A DNA stretch of 44,568 nucleotides from a virus (taxonomy: Duplodnaviria; Heunggongvirae; Uroviricota; Caudoviricetes), in the IMG/VR virus record IMGVR_UViG_2740892423_000027; one strand, written 5' to 3'. Made by a program: the position numbers and the translations under genes. The notes under the pieces are model-generated. The model saw only the letters and a program-made list of their open reading frames with translations, did no database searches and had not been told where the DNA came from. Positions 2,882 to 31,782 of the stretch are shown here, in pieces (within the stretch, counting starts at the first letter, position 1; every line of letters starts with the position of its first letter).

Positions 2882-3454
2882 CTAAGAGGGTATAAATGAC
2901 GTTTCCGGCGGGGCATTCTGGGTCGGGGTATCGGTAACCGGCTTCGACGTCTGCAACGAATCGCGGAACGCCGTAACGCTCGATGAGGTTAGTTGCCCAT
3001 CGTACATTTTGATCACCGTTCCCACGGTCGGCGCGATCAGGTTTGCCTTCTGAATAGCAGAGGAAACCATAAAAAAAACCACTTCGCCTTCGACCTCGCG
3101 ATACTCATCAGGGGCGATAATCCCCTGATTGAATGCCACCTCAAGGGGCGTGGTTTTCCACTGGCCGCCGACGTTATGGATAACGACCGTCAGTCGCTGA
3201 ATTTCATCTACGATGTTCGGGCCTGCCCGACCGTTATCGATTTCCGCTTTCAGGCTCTGCCTCAGCATCATCGCGGCGATTCTGGCGGCGCCAAGACCAC
3301 CCACCTGCGAGATGAATTTTGTGAACAGGTTCCCCAGCAGGATGCAGTGTTCTTCCACCACCTCATAGGGGAATGGCGTCACATGCAGGTATACGATCGA
3401 GCCGTCTTCGCGGGTAACGTTGGTGACCAGATTCAGTTTCTTGTCAATTTTCAT
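2882..3454 (-). CDS. Phage tail assembly/structural protein (hypothetical)
   Basis: 190-aa ORF in virion gene string between putative tube and tape-measure-like genes; no family recognised. Confidence 0.4.
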   Translation of the reverse strand: MKIDKKLNLVTNVTREDGSIVYLHVTPFPYEVVEEHCILLGNLFTKFISQVGGLGAARIAAMMLRQSLKAEIDNGRAGPNIVDEIQRLTVVIHNVGGQWKTTPLEVAFNQGIIAPDEYREVEGEVVFFMVSSAIQKANLIAPTVGTVIKMYDGQLTSSSVTAFRDSLQTSKPVTDTPTQNAPPETSFIPS

Positions 3455-3898: not shown

Positions 3899-5293
3899 TT
3901 ACGCCCCTACAAAGTTCGTTACGTTCACGTTAAACGTGATGGATTCGAAGCCGCGGCGCGGCGTCATGACGGCGCTCAGCCCGTTATATTTGCCTTCCTG
4001 GTAATCGGAGGGGTTCAGGCTGTTGTAGTTACTGAACGGCACGGCGTTGATCACGGCGTTGCCGGCGTAAGTGCCTTTGTCATACTCGGTGTTGAAATCT
4101 TCCTGCGTAAGTTGCGTGTCAATGACGCGACCGAGGATCAGCCCGTAGCTGATGCCATTACGCAAGGTTTTCAGAGCACGACGCTGCAGGCGGTCAATGC
4201 CCTTCTGCTCGTAGTACAGCGGGTTAACGGTGGTGTTGGAGCCGTTGATAATTTCATTCGCCAGGTCGAGCTCAAGGTTGATCGCCGTCCACGCCACCGA
4301 ATACCAGTAGTTGAACGGGTTACCGTCGAGCATGCGGCCGGTGAACAGCACTTTATTGCTGAGACCACCTTCTGCGCCGGTGCCGACGTAGTTGATGTTG
4401 TTGTCCTGCAGCGATTTCAGCAGTGCGCTGTTACCTTCCAGCGGGTACTCAGTCAGGCCGTACATAAAGCGGTACGACATCGGCGGCACCATGTTGCTCG
4501 ACCCCGGGTCGTTTGCCAGGGATGACTGGAACGGGCCGGCCATGGAAAACTCGCTCGCCGGAATATCCGGAGCCTCGACGCCGGCAAAGACAGTTTTGTA
4601 TTTCGTCGCAGTCCACGCTTCATAGGTCGCGATCGTTGTGGTGACAAAGAAGTAAACCAGACTTCCCGGCGAAGTATAGAGGCTGGTCAGGGTTTTAAAT
4701 TCATCGACCGAATCCCATTCGCGCGGCACCAGATAGGAGAAAAACTTCTGGTAGGTGTTACCCAGGGAGACGTCTTCAGCAATGAAGGTTGTCAGCGCTG
4801 CGACAGCTGCCTCCATGGACACATCGCCCAGTTCCAGCACATAAACAGCCCGCGTTTTACCCTGGGCCCAGAACGAAGTATTCATCTGGGAAATTTCGGT
4901 CTGCACTACCGTTTTTACCGTTCCCATTGCCGTTGCGGTTCCTGGGTTGGTCGTCAGCGGATAGGTGAAGGTGTTGGCTCCTGTCACCGTAGCGGTATAG
5001 GCGCCATTGTACCCCGCCGGAGTCGCGCCGGAGATGATCACCGGGACCTGCGACCCGTTAGTCCATCCGTGAGCGGCAGCCAGCGTGACGGTTACCACGC
5101 CAGTAGCCCAGGCGAGCGTCGAGATGGTTTTCGCCGGTGCAAGGATGTCGGCCAGGTCGGTTTCACTGGTCAGCAGCTGATATTCACCGGCATTCAGCGT
5201 CGTGCCGCCCATAGAAATCATCGCCCCGGACTTTAACAACTGCGAGGGCTTCGGCGGATTCGTCACCGACACGTTAATATTAACAATTGCCAT
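3899..5293 (-). CDS. Putative tail sheath-like structural protein
   Basis: 464-aa Thr/Gly/Ala-rich ORF preceded by four small connector-sized genes and followed by a tube-sized gene; assignment by order and size, no motif confirmed. Confidence 0.35.
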   Translation of the reverse strand: MAIVNINVSVTNPPKPSQLLKSGAMISMGGTTLNAGEYQLLTSETDLADILAPAKTISTLAWATGVVTVTLAAAHGWTNGSQVPVIISGATPAGYNGAYTATVTGANTFTYPLTTNPGTATAMGTVKTVVQTEISQMNTSFWAQGKTRAVYVLELGDVSMEAAVAALTTFIAEDVSLGNTYQKFFSYLVPREWDSVDEFKTLTSLYTSPGSLVYFFVTTTIATYEAWTATKYKTVFAGVEAPDIPASEFSMAGPFQSSLANDPGSSNMVPPMSYRFMYGLTEYPLEGNSALLKSLQDNNINYVGTGAEGGLSNKVLFTGRMLDGNPFNYWYSVAWTAINLELDLANEIINGSNTTVNPLYYEQKGIDRLQRRALKTLRNGISYGLILGRVIDTQLTQEDFNTEYDKGTYAGNAVINAVPFSNYNSLNPSDYQEGKYNGLSAVMTPRRGFESITFNVNVTNFVGA

Positions 5294-25061: not shown

Positions 25062-25769
25062 ATGGTTCAGAATGAAAAAGTGCGCAAAGAATTCGCCCAG
25101 CGGCTAGCGCAAGCCTGTAAAGAAGCTGGTCTTGATGAACATGGTAGGGGGATGGCCATAGCCCGTGCCCTTTCTCTTTCGTCCAAAGGCGTTAGCAAAT
25201 GGTTTAATGCTGAGTCTTTACCGCGCCAGGAAAAAATGAATGCGCTTGCGAAATTTCTAAACGTTGATGTTGTTTGGCTTCAGCACGGCACTTCGTTAAA
25301 TGGAGCGAATGATGAAGATACTCTTTCATTTGTTGGCAAATTAAAAAAAGGGTTAGTGCGCGTGGTTGGTGAGGCAATTCTTGGTGTTGATGGTGCCATC
25401 GAGATGACCGAAGAGCGCGATGGGTGGCTCAAAATTTATAGCGATGATCCAGATGCCTTTGGTCTTCGTGTGAAAGGAGACAGCATGTGGCCCAGAATAA
25501 AATCAGGAGAATATGTACTCATTGAGCCTAACACCAAAGTATTCCCGGGTGATGAGGTGTTTGTCAGAACCGTTGAAGGACACAACATGATTAAGGTTCT
25601 TGGCTATGACAGAGATGGAGAATACCAATTTACAAGCATTAACCAGGACCACAGGCCAATAACGTTGCCTTATCATCAAGTAGCAAAGGTGGAGTATGTG
25701 GCTGGTATTCTGAAGCAATCTCGCCATCTGGATGACATCGAGGCAAGGGAGTGGCTGAAAAATTCGTGA
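25062..25769 (+). CDS. cI: CI-type repressor with LexA-like S24 autopeptidase domain
   Basis: 235 aa; N-terminal HTH region; C-terminal GDSMWP catalytic-serine motif of S24 peptidases; divergent from cro. Confidence 0.85.
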   Translation: MVQNEKVRKEFAQRLAQACKEAGLDEHGRGMAIARALSLSSKGVSKWFNAESLPRQEKMNALAKFLNVDVVWLQHGTSLNGANDEDTLSFVGKLKKGLVRVVGEAILGVDGAIEMTEERDGWLKIYSDDPDAFGLRVKGDSMWPRIKSGEYVLIEPNTKVFPGDEVFVRTVEGHNMIKVLGYDRDGEYQFTSINQDHRPITLPYHQVAKVEYVAGILKQSRHLDDIEAREWLKNS

Positions 25770-25892: not shown

Positions 25893-26795
25893 ATGAGCCA
25901 AAATCTTGATTCAACACTAGAAACATACATTTCTTGGCAGTTAGAGCAATTTAAAAATAACTTTTTCCCAAGCTGCGACGTCATAGCGTACTACGGTGGT
26001 ATCTTTCCATGGTCAAAAGAAGTTTACCAACCAAAACTTGAGGCTATTGGGGAGATGGCTAACAGTCGTACCAATAGATTTCTAGTTATTATACTCAATA
26101 CAAATGGTGGCTCTGTTGAGTCTGTGGAAAAAATGGTAGAAATTACAAGGCATTTCTATCAAGAGGTATATTTTATCATTCCAGATATGGCCATGTCGGC
26201 AGGCACAATATGGTGTATGTCTGGAGATAAAATTTACATGAACTATGCTTCTTCATTAGGCCCCATTGACCCTCAAGTGCAATCCTCTGACGGTAAATGG
26301 GTTCCTGCTTTGGGATACCTTGATAAAGTTGAAGAAATGATTACTAAATCCAGAGAAGGAACCATTACCCAAGCTGAACTAATGATGCTTAGTCAGTTAG
26401 ATCTTGCGCACTTAAGGAGATACGAGCAAGCCAGAGAGCTATCAATAGACTTGCTTAAGAAGTGGCTTGTAGAGTATAAATTCAGAGAGTGGACGGTTCA
26501 TCAAGGTAACACAAAACGAGGAAAGCTAGTTTCCAAGAGGGAAAAAGAAGCAAGAGCTAAAATGATCGCTACCGCTCTTAGTGACAACGGAAAGTGGCAT
26601 TCTCACGGAAGAACGATAGGAATAAATACTCTTATCAATGACTTAAGAATTAAAGTAGAAGACTTTACATACGACAAAGATTTTAGCATGGCGTTAAAAA
26701 ATCTGCACAACGTCATTAATGAATACATGTATAAGACAAATCGACAGGTTCTTGTTCTGTCTTCATTCCCCTTCTCAGAACAAAGTGAGTCATAA
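25893..26795 (+). CDS. ClpP/S49-clan serine protease-like protein (rex-position cargo)
   Basis: 300 aa; LNTNGGSVESVEKMVEITRHF...IIPDMAMSAGTIW aligns with the ClpP/SppA NSPGG...AASMG catalytic-Ser region; AT-rich relative to flanks; immediately downstream of cI. Confidence 0.55.
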   Translation: MSQNLDSTLETYISWQLEQFKNNFFPSCDVIAYYGGIFPWSKEVYQPKLEAIGEMANSRTNRFLVIILNTNGGSVESVEKMVEITRHFYQEVYFIIPDMAMSAGTIWCMSGDKIYMNYASSLGPIDPQVQSSDGKWVPALGYLDKVEEMITKSREGTITQAELMMLSQLDLAHLRRYEQARELSIDLLKKWLVEYKFREWTVHQGNTKRGKLVSKREKEARAKMIATALSDNGKWHSHGRTIGINTLINDLRIKVEDFTYDKDFSMALKNLHNVINEYMYKTNRQVLVLSSFPFSEQSES

Positions 26796-26966
26796 ATGAG
26801 CAAAGACAAATCACTGACACAGCAAGTGGCAGAAATACTTAGCAAGCAAAAAGTTAGCGAGCAAGGTAAAATGATTCAATCATTAAAGAACAACGGATTG
26901 ATCAACAAGCCTGTTTTTACTTTGGCTTATGGACCTGATACTACAGTCTGCCAAATGCACCAATAA
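26796..26966 (+). CDS. Small ORF coupled to protease gene (hypothetical, 56 aa)
   Basis: ATG at 26796 directly after protease stop; product MSKDKSLTQQVAEILSKQKVSEQGKMIQSLKNNGLINKPVFTLAYGPDTTVCQMHQ; followed by terminator. Confidence 0.35.
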   Translation: MSKDKSLTQQVAEILSKQKVSEQGKMIQSLKNNGLINKPVFTLAYGPDTTVCQMHQ

Positions 26967-26976
26967 CAAAACCCCA

Positions 26977-27002
26977 CCCGGCCTCAGCGCCGGGTTTTCT
27001 TT
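26977..27002 (+). terminator. Rho-independent terminator after cI-protease cassette
   Basis: CCCGGC-CTCAGC-GCCGGG hairpin followed by TTTTCTTT. Confidence 0.7.
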
Positions 27003-27172
27003 GCCTCACGATCGCCCTCCCATATTTAATAGCCGCAAATGTGGTAAACCGCGAACCAACTCACCAGCAATACCCCCTCCAACTACAGACCAATCTGCAG
27101 CATTTACAAAAATAAATTTCCTTATATATCAAAATTATATCTCGTTGCATTAATAAATCACAAAATTTTCGT

Positions 27173-27205
27173 ACCAATAGTTCTTGATAATGTCGAACTA
27201 TTGGT
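27173..27205. promoter_or_regulatory. OL/pL-region inverted repeat ACCAATAGTTC..GAACTATTGGT
   Basis: 11-bp perfect arms with 11-bp spacer; overlaps a TTGATA -35-like hexamer; upstream of nutL and N. Confidence 0.45.
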
Positions 27206-27257
27206 TCAATATTGTCACATCAGCAGGACGCTGGAAGCCAAACGGAACAGACTGGCA

Positions 27258-27285
27258 GGCTCTTTAAACAACGTCGAACACTCGA
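27258..27285 (+). promoter_or_regulatory. nutL-like site (boxA GCTCTTTAA + boxB hairpin GTCGA-ACAC-TCGAC)
   Basis: boxA-like at 27258-27266, 5-bp stem hairpin at 27272-27285, about 120 nt upstream of N. Confidence 0.5.
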
Positions 27286-27402
27286 CTACGTGGCTGAAAA
27301 GCCAGATCACCCAACCACATAAGCTGTGGGATGCAATGCCGAAGCAACCGTCTCAGGAGGGGCTTCGAGATTGCATCGCCAAAGTTTATTCGGGAGGAAT
27401 CC

Positions 27403-27675
27403 ATGTCCAGAAAAACAGAATTTAAAGGCACCGCAGCTTCTCGCCGTAGAGCTCGTCGCGCAAATTTGCAAAGTCAGGAGGCGATCAGCTCCGACAAGCT
27501 ACACAGGCCAACCCCTTCACGAGTGGTCTTGCAATGCAAGCGCAAACCAGCAATGAGAGCAGAAGTGATAACTCTGACAACGTTGACCAGAAAATATGAA
27601 GGTTCAACTTGTCTTCCAAATGTAGCTCTTTACGCGGCAGGCTACAGGAAATCAAAACAACTGACAGCAAGGTGA
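27403..27675 (+). CDS. N: N-type antiterminator (arginine-rich motif protein)
   Basis: ATG at 27403 after GGGAGGA; N-terminal arginine-rich motif TAASRRRARRA; first gene of early-left operon downstream of nutL. Confidence 0.65.
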   Translation: MSRKTEFKGTAASRRRARRANLQSQEAISSDKLHRPTPSRVVLQCKRKPAMRAEVITLTTLTRKYEGSTCLPNVALYAAGYRKSKQLTAR

Positions 27676-27733
27676 CTTGTGTTGGTCGCCAGAAAACGAA
27701 GGGCAAATCCATCGCATTAATCTGAGGTGGCCC

Positions 27734-27898
27734 ATGAAGAACAGCATCAAGTGCCCGGTATGCGGTCGTGACTTCGATCCACGCACTCCGGTCTGCCACA
27801 TCAGCAAGTATCACCAGTCAGCGAAGAACTGCGAGCTGGAGAAGATACGCGATGCCCGGCGGCAATATTTCAAAGTAACAGCGAGTGAGGTTCGGTGA
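27734..27898 (+). CDS. Small zinc-ribbon protein (hypothetical)
   Basis: ATG at 27734; MKNSIKCPVCGRDFDPRTPVCHISKYH contains CxxC...C..H. Confidence 0.4.
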   Translation: MKNSIKCPVCGRDFDPRTPVCHISKYHQSAKNCELEKIRDARRQYFKVTASEVR

Positions 27899-28236
27899 TG
27901 GAAAATAAAACGGCTAACGGGATGTACGTACTGCGTGGTGAGCTGAAAAAGGGACTGATAGCGGAGCTGGTAAAGGCATACGACCAGCTGACTCAGGAGT
28001 CAGAAAAATTAAAGATCCTCGGACTCAGGTATAACACCCCTCGACGCATTGTTTATGGCTTTATGTATGAGGTTGCAGCATTAACCGTCAAGGAAATTAT
28101 GTTTAAAACTGAGGGTGGCTTTTACATCCCACAGGATGACTTCGAATCGAGCGACGATATCGATTCATTAGCCAAAGAGATCATCGATGTAATTGACTGT
28201 AATGGCGCATTCCTTGAGCGCCTTCTTAAGGAGTAG
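27898..28236 (+). CDS. Hypothetical early-left protein
   Basis: ATG at 27898 overlapping upstream stop; 112 aa; not recognised. Confidence 0.4.
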   Translation: MENKTANGMYVLRGELKKGLIAELVKAYDQLTQESEKLKILGLRYNTPRRIVYGFMYEVAALTVKEIMFKTEGGFYIPQDDFESSDDIDSLAKEIIDVIDCNGAFLERLLKE

Positions 28237-28238
28237 CA

Positions 28239-28397
28239 ATGAAAAAACTGTATGAAAAACTCCCGGTCGTAGTGCAGGGGGTCATTTTGGGTCTGCTTAT
28301 CACTGCGGCCATTCTTCTTATCAATGCGGCCATTCTTCTGTCTACCCCGCCAGTCGTCATGTTTCTTCGTTGGTGGTTCAGAGTTTGGGGTGTCTGA
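28239..28397 (+). CDS. Small hydrophobic membrane protein (52 aa)
   Basis: Manually translated MKKLYEKLPVVVQGVILGLLITAAILLINAAILLSTPPVVMFLRWWFRVWGV; ATG 3 nt after upstream stop. Confidence 0.35.
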   Translation: MKKLYEKLPVVVQGVILGLLITAAILLINAAILLSTPPVVMFLRWWFRVWGV

Positions 28398-28472
28398 TCG
28401 GCGCAAGCATTACGCACAGAACGAATCGAGCGGGTCGAGTGGCCTGCGGTGAATAAACAAAGGGGTGAGGGT

Positions 28473-28715
28473 ATGGAAAATTTGGACAATGAACTGAAAA
28501 GAGTAGTACAGGAACTGGCCAATGAAGAAGGCATCAGTTTTGCCGATGCCGTGGACGTTTCGATTAAGACGCTTCGTTACGAAATTCAGCACAGAAAGTC
28601 TTTTAATGGGTCGCCTGACCCCGATGGAGGCGCATCAGGAGTAGAGGTACGCCGACCAAATATCGAAGCGGCAAACAAAAATCGCTGGGGTTTGACGATT
28701 GGTGTAACTGGATAG
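28473..28715 (+). CDS. Hypothetical small acidic protein
   Basis: ATG at 28473 with AAAGGGGTGAGGG upstream; 80 aa. Confidence 0.35.
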   Translation: MENLDNELKRVVQELANEEGISFADAVDVSIKTLRYEIQHRKSFNGSPDPDGGASGVEVRRPNIEAANKNRWGLTIGVTG

Positions 28716-28794
28716 ATACGTAACTTGGTGGGATAAATAACAGGTAACTTAAGCGTATTTACTTTCGCAGCAAACCACTTATTTGAGGTGATAT

Positions 28795-29244
28795 ATGGAA
28801 GAACAAGCAAACAAGATTCTCGTAGAACTACTGAAAAAAGCCAGTAATGGAATAGACGCGGCTGTTTCATTTAGCCAGGCACATATTCCTGATGTTGTTC
28901 ATCAGTTGCTGCTATGGAATATGGTTGACAGTCTGATTAAAACATTAATTGCCATTCTAACAATCCCACTGGTTTTCTGGTTTATGAAGAAGCAGTGCCA
29001 AAGAGTTGAGACAGGTAAAATCGGTGATGAAGGATACTCATGGGAGAGGGGAAATCCCAAATACAGGCCGACAATGGTTTGGGATAGCAAAGGAGATATT
29101 AACCTTCTTATCATGCCATTGGTTGGAGTTTTGGCTCTGTGGGGGGTTTTTATTATTGGTGTAGTAACCAATATGACTTGGTTAAAAATTTGGCTGGCCC
29201 CAAAGCTTTACCTTATCGAATATGCAGCATCATTGGTTAAGTAA
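28795..29244 (+). CDS. Membrane protein, two predicted TM helices (superinfection-exclusion candidate)
   Basis: 149 aa, AT-rich; hydrophobic segments LIKTLIAILTIPLVFWFM and LLIMPLVGVLALWGVFIIGVV; occupies the sieB region of the early-left operon. Confidence 0.45.
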   Translation: MEEQANKILVELLKKASNGIDAAVSFSQAHIPDVVHQLLLWNMVDSLIKTLIAILTIPLVFWFMKKQCQRVETGKIGDEGYSWERGNPKYRPTMVWDSKGDINLLIMPLVGVLALWGVFIIGVVTNMTWLKIWLAPKLYLIEYAASLVK

Positions 29245-29248
29245 TTTC

Positions 29249-29275
29249 AGGCCGCATAGTCGGCCTTTATTTTTG
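29249..29275 (+). terminator. Rho-independent terminator-like hairpin
   Basis: AGGCCG-CATAGT-CGGCCT followed by TTATTTTTGG. Confidence 0.55.
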
Positions 29276-29484
29276 GCATAAACAACAGAATAAACACTGC
29301 ACTGTGTATTCATTCCAACGAGTGAATACACGGAGCAATGTCGCTCGTAACTAAACAGGAGCCGACTTGTTCTGATTATTGGAAATCTTCTTTGCCCTCC
29401 AATGTGAGGGCCTTTTTATATGCATACCAATAACGCTTCACTCGAGGCGTTTTTCGTTATGCAATCAAATATAAGGAGTTACCC

Positions 29485-29619
29485 ATGATGCACTTTCAGC
29501 TCGCGGGTAGCGGCGTCATGTCCGCTTTCTACCCGCACGAATCTGAATTATCACGCCGAGTTAAACAATTAATCAGAGCAGCAAAGAAACAACTGGAGGC
29601 GTTATGCGCAATGAAATAG
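29485..29619 (+). CDS. CIII-like protein (FtsH-inhibitor family, 44 aa)
   Basis: Manually translated MMHFQLAGSGVMSAFYPHESELSRRVKQLIRAAKKQLEALCAMK; central ESELSRRVKQLIR resembles lambda CIII ESLLERITRKLR; position N-proximal to kil-like gene. Confidence 0.45.
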   Translation: MMHFQLAGSGVMSAFYPHESELSRRVKQLIRAAKKQLEALCAMK

Positions 29620-29756
29620 CCATTAATCACCAGATGCTTCGTGCGGCACAAAACAAAGCAGTAATAGCCAGATTTATTGGTGATTCCAAAATGTGGCTTG
29701 AAGCAAATAAAGCGATGAAATCAGCTATCAACCTTCCATGGTATCGCAGGAAATGA
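29604..29756 (+). CDS. Kil-like small protein (50 aa)
   Basis: Manually translated MRNEIAINHQMLRAAQNKAVIARFIGDSKMWLEANKAMKSAINLPWYRRK; FIGD.KM segment and position after cIII-like gene recall lambda Kil. Confidence 0.35.
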   Translation: MRNEIAINHQMLRAAQNKAVIARFIGDSKMWLEANKAMKSAINLPWYRRK

Positions 29757-29831
29757 GTTTTACAGATAACTGGTCAGACGAAGAATTCATTCGTCAGATG
29801 AAAGAATTAATCGGTAACGAAGGAGATATTC

Positions 29832-30002
29832 ATGTCACTTGCAACCACAGTGAAGGAGAGCAAGTTACAGAGACGCATGTACACGCAGAAAGCTCTCTGG
29901 TATCGCCATAATGGCGACCGCGAAGGAATGCGGGTATGCCTTAATTTGTCCCGAGTCGAAGTATTAAATCAGCGTTATTTCCTTGGGCCGTGTCCATTCT
30001 GA
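29832..30002 (+). CDS. Hypothetical small protein (56 aa)
   Basis: ATG at 29832 with AAGGAG 8 nt upstream; ends 8 nt before Rad52-like gene; an overlapping alternative ORF 29753-29911 exists. Confidence 0.3.
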   Translation: MSLATTVKESKLQRRMYTQKALWYRHNGDREGMRVCLNLSRVEVLNQRYFLGPCPF

Positions 30003-30010
30003 GGTGAATT

Positions 30011-30718
30011 ATGGATTTGAACAAATTCGATGAGCCATTCAGCCCTGAAGATATCGAATGGCGAATACAGCAAAGCGGTAAAACACGCGATGGCAAGGTG
30101 TGGGCTATGGTGCTGGCTTATGTCACGAACCGGGCAATCATGAAACGCCTGGACGATGTTTGCGGCAAAGCAGGATGGCGCAATGAATACCGCGATATTC
30201 CCAACAACGGCGGCGTTGAATGCGGCATATCAATAAAGATTGATTCCGAATGGGTAACCAAATGGGATGCTGCTGAAAACACGCAGGTAGAAGCCGTAAA
30301 AGGTGGTCGTTCCGGTGCAATGAAGCGCGCTGCCGTTCAGTGGGGAATCGGTCGGTATCTGTATAACCTTGAGGAAGGTTTCGCACAAACATCTCTCGAT
30401 AAAAAGCAGGGGTGGCACAGGGCAAAACTGAAGGATGGAACAGGATTTTACTGGCTCCCTCCATCGCTGCCGGGATGGGCAACCCCAGCATCAGATAACA
30501 AACCATCACCAGAAAATACCAACCAGAAATCTCCATCGGTTGATTGCGAACAAATCCTGAAAGACTTCAGCGATTATGCATCGAAAGAAACTGACAAGAA
30601 AAAACTCATCGAGCGTTATCAGCGTGACTGGCAATTAATGGCTGGCAATGAGGATGCGCAGGCTAAATGCGTTCAGGTAATGAACATCAGAGTTAACGAA
30701 CTAAAACAGGCGGCATAA
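30011..30718 (+). CDS. Rad52-like single-strand annealing protein (Sak-type recombinase)
   Basis: 235 aa; YVTNRAIMKRLDDVCGKAGWRNEY resembles the Rad52/Rad22 signature; followed directly by SSB and exonuclease. Confidence 0.55.
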   Translation: MDLNKFDEPFSPEDIEWRIQQSGKTRDGKVWAMVLAYVTNRAIMKRLDDVCGKAGWRNEYRDIPNNGGVECGISIKIDSEWVTKWDAAENTQVEAVKGGRSGAMKRAAVQWGIGRYLYNLEEGFAQTSLDKKQGWHRAKLKDGTGFYWLPPSLPGWATPASDNKPSPENTNQKSPSVDCEQILKDFSDYASKETDKKKLIERYQRDWQLMAGNEDAQAKCVQVMNIRVNELKQAA

Positions 30719-31225
30719 ATGGCAAGCAGAGGCGTAAATAAGGTGATTATCCTTGGTCGGGTAGGACAAGACCCGGAAGTTCGATACTCACCATCAGGAA
30801 CAGCGTTCGCTAACCTGACAATAGCCACGTCAGAACAATGGCGAGATAAAAATACTGGCGAGCAAAAGGAATTGACTGAATGGCATCGTGTTGCTGTATC
30901 CGGGAAACTGGCTGAGGTCGTGGGGCAGTATGTGAAAAAAGGTGATCAGATTTATTTCGAGGGAATGCTGAGAACCAGAAAGTGGAAAGACCAGTCAGGG
31001 CAAGACCGTTACACAACCGAGGTTCATGTCGGAATTAATGGCGTGATGCAAATGCTTGGCGGAATTGGCGACAGCAAACAACAAGCAGCCAGCAGGCAAT
31101 CACAGAAGCCACAGCAGCAATCATCACCAGCACAACACAACGAACCTCCGATGGATTTTGACGACGATATACCCTTTGCACCAGTAACTCTCCCCTTCCC
31201 TCGTCACGCTATTCACGCAATTTAA
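30719..31225 (+). CDS. ssb: Single-stranded DNA-binding protein
   Basis: 168 aa; OB-fold N-terminus [23 protein letters not shown], Gln/Pro-rich linker and acidic tail DFDDDIPF. Confidence 0.9.
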
Positions 31226-31233
31226 GGACTTAC

Positions 31234-31782
31234 ATGAATCACTTAATGGTTGACCTTGAAACAATGGGCAACGGGCCATATGCGCCAGTTATTTCTATTG
31301 GGGCGGTATTCTTTGACCCGAATACCGGAGAAACAGGAGAAGAGTTCTCGGTAAATATCTCGCTTGAGTCATCAATGCGATATCGGGCGCGTCCTGACGC
31401 TTCAACGATTTTATGGTGGATGGAACAGAGTGAAGAAGCCAGAAAATCGCTAACCAGCAACACTCAAGAGCTTTCAACGGCTCTTTCATGGTTATCTGAA
31501 TTCATCATAAAGAACGCCAACCACAAACTCGTTCAGGTTTGGGGGAATGGAGCATCATTTGACTGCGTTATTCTCCGCAACAGTTATTCGCTGACAGGGC
31601 AGCCAGTTCCGTGGCAGTGGTGGAATGACCGCGACGTAAGAACAATCGTCGAACTTGGGAAGGCAATAGGATTCGACCCTAAGCGAGATATGCCATTCAA
31701 AGGAACTCGCCACAACGCGCTTGATGATGCCATCCACCAAGCCAAATACGTTTCAGCGATCTGGAAAAAGTTAGCTAAATAA
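31234..31782 (+). CDS. DEDDh-type 3'-5' exonuclease (DnaQ-like)
   Basis: 182 aa; N-terminal MVDLETMG (Exo I D-x-E) and C-terminal HNALDDA motifs. Confidence 0.7.
   Translation: MNHLMVDLETMGNGPYAPVISIGAVFFDPNTGETGEEFSVNISLESSMRYRARPDASTILWWMEQSEEARKSLTSNTQELSTALSWLSEFIIKNANHKLVQVWGNGASFDCVILRNSYSLTGQPVPWQWWNDRDVRTIVELGKAIGFDPKRDMPFKGTRHNALDDAIHQAKYVSAIWKKLAK

Follow-up and report, generated by a model that had tools for sequence, protein, structure and literature searches.

Two exchangeable cassettes of early-left accessory genes between N and cIII of a mosaic lambdoid phage

Introduction

In lambdoid phages the interval between the antiterminator gene N and cIII, within the early-left (pL) operon, is known to harbour small genes directed against the host or other phages (ral, sieB, P22 gene 17), although most of its cargo is unnamed. 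Phage lambda carries sieB, orf28, ral and ea10 in this segment, and P22 carries sieB, ral, orf78, orf87 and gene 17 plus a terminator; according to the phage L genome paper, most early-left genes have no known function (PMC8022706). Here we describe the same interval in the IMG/VR virus record IMGVR_UViG_2740892423_000027 (Duplodnaviria; Heunggongvirae; Uroviricota; Caudoviricetes), a stretch of 44,568 nucleotides that we call the window, where five open reading frames (ORFs) occupy positions 27,734 to 29,244. An initial annotation, made from the sequence alone, had placed these ORFs in the ral/sieB slot and put them forward as candidate exclusion or anti-restriction functions.

SieB, the membrane protein of the interval, is about 190 amino acids (aa) long with two hydrophobic segments; its gene is antisense to pL, with its own promoter (annotated in P22) and an internal start, esc. 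Ral is a small cysteine-containing protein encoded on the sense strand of pL. The product of P22 gene 17, gp17, is soluble, acidic and 103 aa long, is encoded last before the terminator and c3/cIII, and carries the annotation ‘allows growth on phage Fels2 lysogen’. Further afield, T4 Imm (83 aa) and HK97 gp15 (62 aa) are small stand-alone inner-membrane phage proteins, the former expressed early by a virulent phage and the latter the product of a gene-plus-terminator moron amid tail genes.

The interval in the window is a hypervariable accessory segment of the early-left operon, running from N to cIII-kil in a mosaic lambdoid phage, and it consists of two independently exchangeable cassettes. 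Because it holds no gene related to Ral or SieB, its content is ordinary lambdoid accessory cargo. What is gained is a map that sets a rare ORFan cassette apart from a widespread single-gene cassette, and a correction: the family of the 149-aa protein forms a module in its own right, to be classed as a substitute neither for ral nor for sieB.

Results and discussion

The interval is built of two cassettes

The window represents a phage or prophage of the lambdoid kind and is identical, over a locus of 6,447 bases, to the IMG/VR contig IMGVR_UViG_2648501669_000020. The features between and including the boundary genes are listed here, with Shine-Dalgarno (SD) sequences where these stand out and with transmembrane (TM) segments abbreviated.

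27403-27675, plus strand: N, antiterminator of the Stx-phage type (PF25694, E 2.4e-32; SD GGGAGGA); left boundary
27672-28785, plus strand: rare cassette (cassette 1), with Zn54, p112, p52 and p60/p80
27676-27725, plus strand: 3′-end remnant of a different N allele, ending in VTCVGRQKTKGKSIALI and a stop; the approximately 50 nt after the N stop
27734-27898, plus strand: Zn54, basic protein of 54 aa (SD GAGGTGG) with a single C2H2-like finger
27898-28236, plus strand: p112, acidic ORFan of 112 aa (isoelectric point 4.8); 1-nt start/stop overlap with Zn54 (TGATG)
28239-28397, plus strand: p52, hydrophobic peptide of 52 aa (SD AAGGAG); Kyte-Doolittle 19-residue windows up to 2.8
28473-28715, plus strand: p60/p80, small acidic protein, 80 aa here (88 aa from the GTG at 28449)
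28786-29275, plus strand: widespread cassette (cassette 2), p149 plus intrinsic terminator
28786-28803, plus strand: right joint of the rare cassette, AGGTGATATATGGAAGAA, from the alignment with ETEC4091
28795-29244, plus strand: p149, two-TM protein of PHROG 3054; hydrophobic segments at about residues 43-65 and 102-126
29249-29275, plus strand: intrinsic terminator, AGGCCG-CATAGT-CGGCCT followed by TTTATTTTT; hairpin 29249-29266, folding z-score -2.9
29394-29459, plus strand: two further terminator-like hairpins (consensus scan)
29485-29619, plus strand: cIII (PF08134, E 2e-30); right boundary
29604-29756, plus strand: kil (PF06301, E 1.7e-20); right boundary

All five cargo ORFs lie on the sense strand of pL, are tightly spaced and have SD sequences. 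The ORFs, hydrophobic segments, low G+C and terminator of the initial annotation were all recovered at the same positions on the plus strand, and the interval between N and cIII/kil does correspond to the ral/sieB slot of lambda and P22. Every feature of its gene list is present, although the order needs amending to Zn54, p112, p52, p80, p149.

Searches at the DNA level divide the region into three parts (N, 27672-28785 and 28786-29400) with very unlike distributions. N of the Stx-phage type matches 339 phage records. The DNA of 27672-28785 was found in only three of 5,426 complete E. coli genomes and in one phage, Wanchaivirus PDP110P2, while the proteins that it encodes are present on hundreds of draft contigs; the DNA of 28786-29400 is widespread. 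Across 80 IMG/VR loci the gene order is N-[sieB antisense]-[orf28-ral]-p149-[ea10/orf78]-cIII, and among these loci cassette 1 occurs only on the window’s own contig.

Both joints of the rare cassette can be located. In ETEC4091, elppa10 and MEI008 the annotated N gene ends with the sequence that in the window forms the remnant after the N stop, and the Zn54 ORF starts 8 nt further on. The remnant is the scar of a recombination event inside N and puts the left joint at about 27672. At the right joint, a sequence of 18-19 nt that is present once in the window occurs twice in ETEC4091, as a direct repeat bracketing a lambda-like orf28 and an internally deleted ral (locus L002, 5113-5340), of which PGAP calls a 23-aa ‘Ral family’ fragment. 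Compared with this arrangement, the window looks like the product of a deletion between the two repeats, by which ral was removed. The rare cassette itself varies, since some copies fuse Zn54 at about codon 46 to sequence downstream of p52, with loss of both p112 and p52. Other genes also take the place of p149 after it: a ‘Nmad5 family putative nucleotide modification protein’ in MEI008 (4549-5172) and an unrelated 156-aa protein in elppa10 (4129-4599), so the two cassettes assort independently.

The widespread cassette encodes a conserved two-TM protein

The product of the widespread cassette matches PHROG 3054 with an E value of 9.8e-63, residues 1-149 aligning with profile positions 1-137 of 137. 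It shares with the family its length, the two TM segments, the motifs that flank the TM hairpin and the place after ral/sieB and before cIII, and there is no difference of substance, so p149 is a member. TMHMM gives two TM segments for the homologue AEW47744.1 of SPN9CC (orf47; Silas et al., Suppl. File 3). The description of p149 as an AT-rich, two-TM protein followed by a terminator holds: the G+C content of its cassette is 0.404 against 0.503 for the window, among the lowest 7.6% of 450-nt segments, and a matching hairpin after p149 is retained in 58 of 77 related loci.

All 459 homologues of p149 are unnamed (‘hypothetical’) and have no Pfam domain. By tblastn the family extends to 178 phage records, which include lambdoid and P22-like temperate phages, N4-like Schitoviridae (FSL SP-058 and a Vibrio phage), Stephanstirmvirinae (alia), a Pseudomonas phage and records of Campylobacter phages. 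Members of PHROG 3054 include CUS-3 ECRS218_0047, Oslo gp47, HF4s gp37 and SPN9CC AEW47744.1, together with Sf6 gene 34 according to the annotation of Lyrsu01. Literature searches by accession and by PHROG identifier gave no match; a paper on Sf6 deletions concerns the nin region only, and a paper on lysogeny transcriptomics holds no data on p149.

Conservation is concentrated at the two ends of the protein. Before TM1 lies a motif comprising F26, P32, V34, Q37-L39 and W41, with the pattern IP(D/E)V..QLL.W, and after TM2 a second one comprising I132, A135-K137, L140, E142, A144-A145 and L147, with the pattern (W)L(K)I.(x)APK...E.AA.L, whilst the loop between the TM segments varies in length and sequence across the family. 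The p149 and CUS-3 proteins are about 50% identical with near-identical ends, and the TM1-loop-TM2 core differs between subfamilies. The ratio of non-synonymous to synonymous substitution rates (dN/dS), calculated over 53 unique alleles, is 0.215 overall, 0.075 for the N-terminal part, 0.06 for the C-terminal part and 0.87 for TM2. p149 is therefore under purifying selection and is a real, autonomous gene. In an AlphaFold2 (AF2) model a long helix at the N-terminus continues into TM1, and TM2 is followed by a helix at the C-terminus.

A different setting is found in the Vibrio myophages K367 g1 and 1.094.O, where the p149 homologue is a lone opposite-strand gene among tail genes and is followed by a strong bidirectional terminator. 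In K367 g1 (locus L101) two single-gene inserts on the opposite strand lie at 266-457 and 3001-3405 among the tail genes; one encodes an Imm-family protein (PF14373, E 3e-9) and the other the p149 homologue, in the same orientation and 2.5 kb apart. This architecture is the classical one of a moron, and the p149 homologue appears to behave as one in these phages.

The cargo is unrelated to SieB and Ral

The placement of the cargo beside Ral and SieB had implied kinship with them, and this did not bear out. The Pfam models for SieB, Ral and GP17 detect the lambda and P22 proteins at E values of 1e-29 to 1e-58 (PF14163 with P22 SieB, E 4e-29, and lambda SieB, E 9e-30; PF11058 with lambda Ral, E 1.6e-48; PF17420, E 1.2e-58). 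With the same models, no ORF of either strand of the interval matched SieB at E<=1, none of the five called ORFs or the scanned minus-strand ORFs matched Ral, and no ORF of the interval matched GP17. The Imm_superinfect model (PF14373) recognises the K367 protein mentioned above and has no match in p149, p52 or their homologues. Searches by tblastn with lambda and P22 proteins, including the Ral proteins of lambda, P22 and CUS-3, found nothing across 26901-30100; hhalign comparisons with SieB, SieA, HK97 gp15 and T4 Imm gave probabilities below 1% (0.2% for SieB, 0.3% for Imm); profile and sequence tests for Ea10 were negative; and a scan of minus-strand ORFs for a hidden sieB yielded nothing. 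With PADLOC 2.0 none of the five ORFs matched a family at E<=1, and Pfam, PHROGs, NCBIfam and PADLOC over all ORFs gave only PHROG 3054, a weak phrog_20899 match and zinc-finger matches. On these comparisons the interval holds neither ral nor sieB, nor a homologue of either. The searches also turned up no homology to unrelated housekeeping genes.

Position and architecture nevertheless invite comparison. p149 is, like SieB, a membrane protein of the N-cIII interval with two hydrophobic segments, but it has no sequence or profile similarity to SieB and co-occurs with sieB, and the cargo ORFs are all sense to pL where sieB is antisense. Zn54 resembles Ral as a small cysteine-containing protein from the sense strand of pL, and ral is the neighbour of p149 in many phages; however, the ligand pattern of Zn54 is C2H2-like and not that of Ral, and ral itself was apparently deleted between the short repeats. 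Gene 17 of P22 shares with p149 its place as the last gene before the terminator and c3/cIII, though gp17 is dissimilar in sequence, soluble and acidic. T4 Imm and HK97 gp15 share with p149 the character of small stand-alone inner-membrane proteins, Imm also the early expression proposed for p149 and the occurrence in a virulent phage, and gp15 the gene-plus-terminator organisation amid tail genes seen for the Vibrio homologues, but both are much shorter than p149.

We also asked whether p149 fills the place that ral, sieB, ea10 or gene 17 takes in other phages and rejected this, as it co-occurs with the first three and has no similarity to gp17. The order in CUS-3 is N-ral-p149, that in Oslo is N-sieB(antisense)-p149, and one IMG/VR locus (L094) holds sieB, ral, p149 and ea10 together. 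Since it co-occurs with ral, sieB and ea10 elsewhere, p149 has a slot of its own.

Transcription of the cargo

Upstream of N lie the elements expected for pL-driven transcription.

27173-27205, plus strand: operator-like palindrome
27184-27213, plus strand: pL-like promoter, within the palindrome
27260-27268: boxA GCTCTTTAA, and 27273-27286: boxB hairpin GTCGAACACTCGAC, which we take to be a nutL-like site on the lambdoid nut consensus

Consensus scans of the plus strand found no sigma-70-like promoter between 27213 and 29759 and no intrinsic terminator between 26995 and 29249. The first terminators come directly after p149, where three terminator-like hairpins are found within about 200 nt, before cIII; in P22, too, an annotated terminator follows the last gene before c3. 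In HF4s only 8 nt separate the start of p149 from N, too short a gap to hold a promoter. Because the stretch from N to 29249 has neither terminator nor promoter and the first terminators follow p149, the cargo would be co-transcribed with N from pL, early or immediate-early after infection or induction, and would be silent in the repressed prophage. Cargo expressed in this way would act in lytic development rather than in exclusion of the SieB or Rex kind, which is expressed by the lysogen. We regard this co-transcription, and the lytic-phase action that follows from it, as rather likely. If true, with the cargo transcribed along with N ahead of any terminator, these proteins would be among the earliest made after infection, which narrows their plausible roles, and their message is possibly N-independent. 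Of the traits of a moron, p149 has its own terminator directly after the gene, whilst a consensus promoter upstream was not seen by what is an insensitive scan.

The known exclusion systems of P22, in contrast, are prophage-expressed (PMC10883804). Lysogen protection in the style of SieB is unlikely for the cargo, as its ORFs are sense to pL without a detectable promoter of their own, whereas sieB is antisense and has one.

A proposed role for p149

The best overall explanation, to which we give an even chance of being right, is that the interval holds mosaic accessory cargo expressed early in the lytic cycle. On this view p149 would work by itself in the inner membrane, at the envelope of the infected cell, and would resemble Imm/Sie factors functionally but not by descent. 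It would block the entry of DNA from a secondary phage or otherwise protect the membrane, with the variable TM2 and loop setting specificity. As the two conserved motifs flank the TM hairpin, both would lie on the same face of the membrane. The moron architecture in Vibrio phages indicates that p149 works alone and travels in the manner of exclusion or immunity cargo, and since virulent phages have the family too, it must serve some purpose in lytic infection. Given this moron-like behaviour, it is plausible that p149 has a role of the exclusion type while the phage grows lytically; assignment of p149 to the Imm/Sie type of envelope factor in particular is less likely than not. PHROG 3054 is in any case a reasonable candidate for envelope-level conflict between phages or between phage and host, being conserved, under purifying selection, present in multiple lifestyles and moron-like.

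Several points weigh against this proposal. The mean numbers of lysine and arginine residues in the family (2.3 in the N-terminal tail, 7.8 in the loop, 3.2 in the C-terminal tail) weakly favour an N-out/C-out topology with a cytoplasmic loop. The AF2 model is of mediocre quality, with a predicted local distance difference test score (pLDDT) of 69.6, and a Foldseek search with it against BFVD found nothing at E<=0.001. Silas et al. (bioRxiv 10.1101/2023.04.06.535777) included orf47 among 200 accessory genes expressed in ECOR strains that were challenged with a panel of T2-T7, P1 and lambda, and the phenotypes that they report, whether conditional-lethal, counter-defence or exclusion, do not include one for orf47; a follow-up found exclusion effects to be poorly reproducible in that screen design (PMC12373910). 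The promoter and terminator results come from simple consensus scans, which weak promoters and Rho-dependent terminators escape. Finally, the moron-like context in Vibrio phages would fit expression from a prophage as well as lytic expression.

From the same accessory-gene study we considered and set aside orf184, which is found in one accessory region with ral and triggers gop-beta-cII: its product, acidic and 107 aa long, is distinct from p149.

The alternative closest to the original suggestion is that the cargo comprises functional analogues of SieB and Ral, the membrane proteins providing superinfection exclusion by the prophage and the cysteine protein alleviating restriction, to the benefit of the lysogen or of the incoming genome. 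The shared N-cIII interval, the combination of two membrane proteins with one small Cys/His protein, the Vibrio morons near an Imm-family gene, and the AT-rich, moron-like p149 cassette with its own terminator are all consistent with this. Set against these are the lack of similarity to SieB, SieA, Ral, GP17, Imm, HK97 gp15 or any PADLOC family, the coexistence of p149 with ral and sieB in the same phages, the sense orientation of the ORFs without a detected promoter, the occurrence of homologues in virulent phages, which never form lysogens, and the absence of orf47 from the genes reported with a phenotype. We consider this alternative unlikely, and the one thing that speaks for an anti-restriction role is position.

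The rare cassette

The small CxxC protein after N had been described as a zinc ribbon. The CxxC is there, but only one of it (C7/C10), followed by H-x4-H in a C2H2-like arrangement with ligands C7, C10, H22 or C21, and H27, and with F14 present, so that Zn54 is a putative single-finger metal-binding protein and not a ribbon. Its sequence IKCPVCGRDF...H....H aligns with consensus C2H2 fingers (PDB 2i13, E 6e-5; 1mey, E 6.5e-4), and a member of its UniRef cluster is labelled ‘C2H2-type domain-containing protein’. It differs from the classical finger in spacing (C-x2-C-x11-H-x4-H as against C-x2-4-C-x12-H-x3-5-H, that is, x11/x4 and not x12/x3) and in its score against zf-Di19 (E 3e-4), which at 21.3 bits is under the Pfam cut-off of 27.5; its match to phrog_20899 is weak (E 2.6e-7). 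Over residues 1-46 the identity to copies in Leclercia and metagenome prophages is 94-98%; in these the ORF starts 8 nt after the N stop, and the tails and downstream partners differ. A variant at 87% identity retains all Cys and His residues, and in one prophage an HNH endonuclease gene precedes Zn54 in place of N.

Through the overlap of start and stop codons, p112 is translationally coupled to Zn54. The exact p112 sequence is present on 360 contigs and its codon-usage score of 0.35 is the best of the region; no homologue below 99% identity was found in 5.8e9 proteins. A full phmmer search of 1.8e9 representatives returned only the near-identical cluster representative (99%) and P0123, a 719-aa repeat protein in which a 33-residue stretch was matched seven times; we judged this second match spurious. 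The AF2 model of p112 from a single sequence (pLDDT 53.5) is too poor for a fold search, and PDB sequence searches with p149, p112 and p60 gave no match.

The third ORF, p52, contains a G-run (28277-28281) and an in-frame 21-bp tandem duplication (28304-28324/28325-28345), and a 45-aa variant that lacks the duplication stays in frame. At the G-run the frame is shifted in the four other assembled copies, namely the three complete E. coli genomes and PDP110P2, the run across the five copies being 4, 5, 6 or 6+GTGG G. These differences could reflect a hypermutable switch or homopolymer errors of long-read assemblies. Because the intact forms are found on 248 (exact 52-aa) and 129 (45-aa) draft contigs, p52 is probably a real gene; its dismissal as a pseudo-ORF, suggested by the four frameshifted copies, is softened by intact forms on about 380 contigs.

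The fourth ORF is of atypical length here: the window has CGA at 28653-28655 where the four other copies have TGA, so a protein that normally ends at 60 aa is read through to 80 aa. Contigs with the 60-aa form number 262+169, those with the 80-aa form 31. Its only matches are sub-threshold ones to RepA/CopB (E 0.11) and MerR (E 0.21).

With regard to function, cassette 1 may encode immediate-early proteins of host takeover or counter-defence, in which Zn54 and p112 would act together and p52 would target membranes as a small peptide; this is our best reading of the cassette, though less likely than not. A more ambitious version, in which PHROG 3054 would be a new class of stand-alone inner-membrane proteins found in both temperate and virulent phages (of Enterobacteria, Vibrio, Pseudomonas and Campylobacter), acting early at the envelope either to exclude a second infection or to counter membrane-acting abortive-infection effectors, with TM2 and the loop as its arms-race surface, and cassette 1 a new immediate-early counter-defence or takeover set, is less likely still.

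Another possibility is that p52 is a membrane-damaging, toxin-like peptide with a role of the Kil/Hok type, perhaps buffered by p60, and that the G-run frameshifts are inactivating changes selected in prophages. The peptide has the look of one, at 45 or 52 aa with a Lys-rich N-terminus, a single hydrophobic helix of some length and a tail rich in Trp and Arg, all behind a strong SD sequence; the same G-run is broken in four of the five assembled copies, at three lengths; deletion variants drop p112 and p52 jointly; and a small acidic protein is encoded downstream. The contig counts show, however, that the intact, ON form is common, the G-run differences may be the assembly errors mentioned above, and p52 has no match in Pfam, PHROGs, NCBIfam or PADLOC while p60 has sub-threshold matches only. 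A toxin-like role for p52 is thus quite unlikely.

Whether all of these ORFs are genes has also to be weighed. In p112, p52, p60 and p149 the called frame has the highest codon-usage score, whereas the score of Zn54 is ambiguous, no better than that of the antisense frame. ORF length is insufficient as proof of coding because the minus strand here holds ORFs of 89-109 aa. PGAP leaves Zn54 uncalled in two genomes and p52 in three, and all four substitutions among five DNA copies of Zn54 plus p112 are non-synonymous; four are too few for inferring selection. The idea that Zn54, p52 and the 20-codon extension of p60 are chance ORFs in a recombination-scarred spacer, leaving p112, p60 and p149 as the only genes, draws on the minus-strand ORFs, the codon score of Zn54 and the PGAP omissions, on the three frames that are open for about 120 nt past the p52 G-run (28280-28400) and on the minority status of the extension (31 contigs against 431), but it is improbable given the ligands kept in the 87%-identical Zn54 variant, the constant 8-nt distance of Zn54 from the N stop wherever N precedes it, its matches to C2H2 consensus fingers and phrog_20899, and the AAGGAG sequence, frame-keeping length variant and best codon score in its own frame of p52.

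Genes flanking the interval

Upstream of pL the window contains the immunity region and a pair of ORFs in the position of rexAB, the usual site of lysogen-expressed defence cargo.

25062-25769, plus strand: cI, immunity region
25893-26995, plus strand: ClpP/SDH-like protease gene and 56-aa ORF in the rexAB position, then a tImm-like terminator at 26976-26995

The 300-aa serine protease-like product of the gene after cI is of the ClpP/SDH type (PF01972, E 1.6e-10; phrog_11747, E 2e-99), and the 56-aa ORF matches phrog_28875. The pair had no match in PADLOC, and megablast found none among 50,697 phage records. An Rfam scan of 26800-29700 gave no match.

Downstream, two overlapping small ORFs of 57 and 56 aa without a Pfam match occupy 29738-30002, between kil and the gene for a Rad52-family recombinase. 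The recombination module that follows (30011-31782) encodes a Rad52/22-family annealase (PF04098, E 5e-26; phrog_1097), SSB and a 3′-5′ exonuclease, the last named from the annotation of the same arrangement in MEI008, and it differs from the Exo/Bet/Gam system of lambda.

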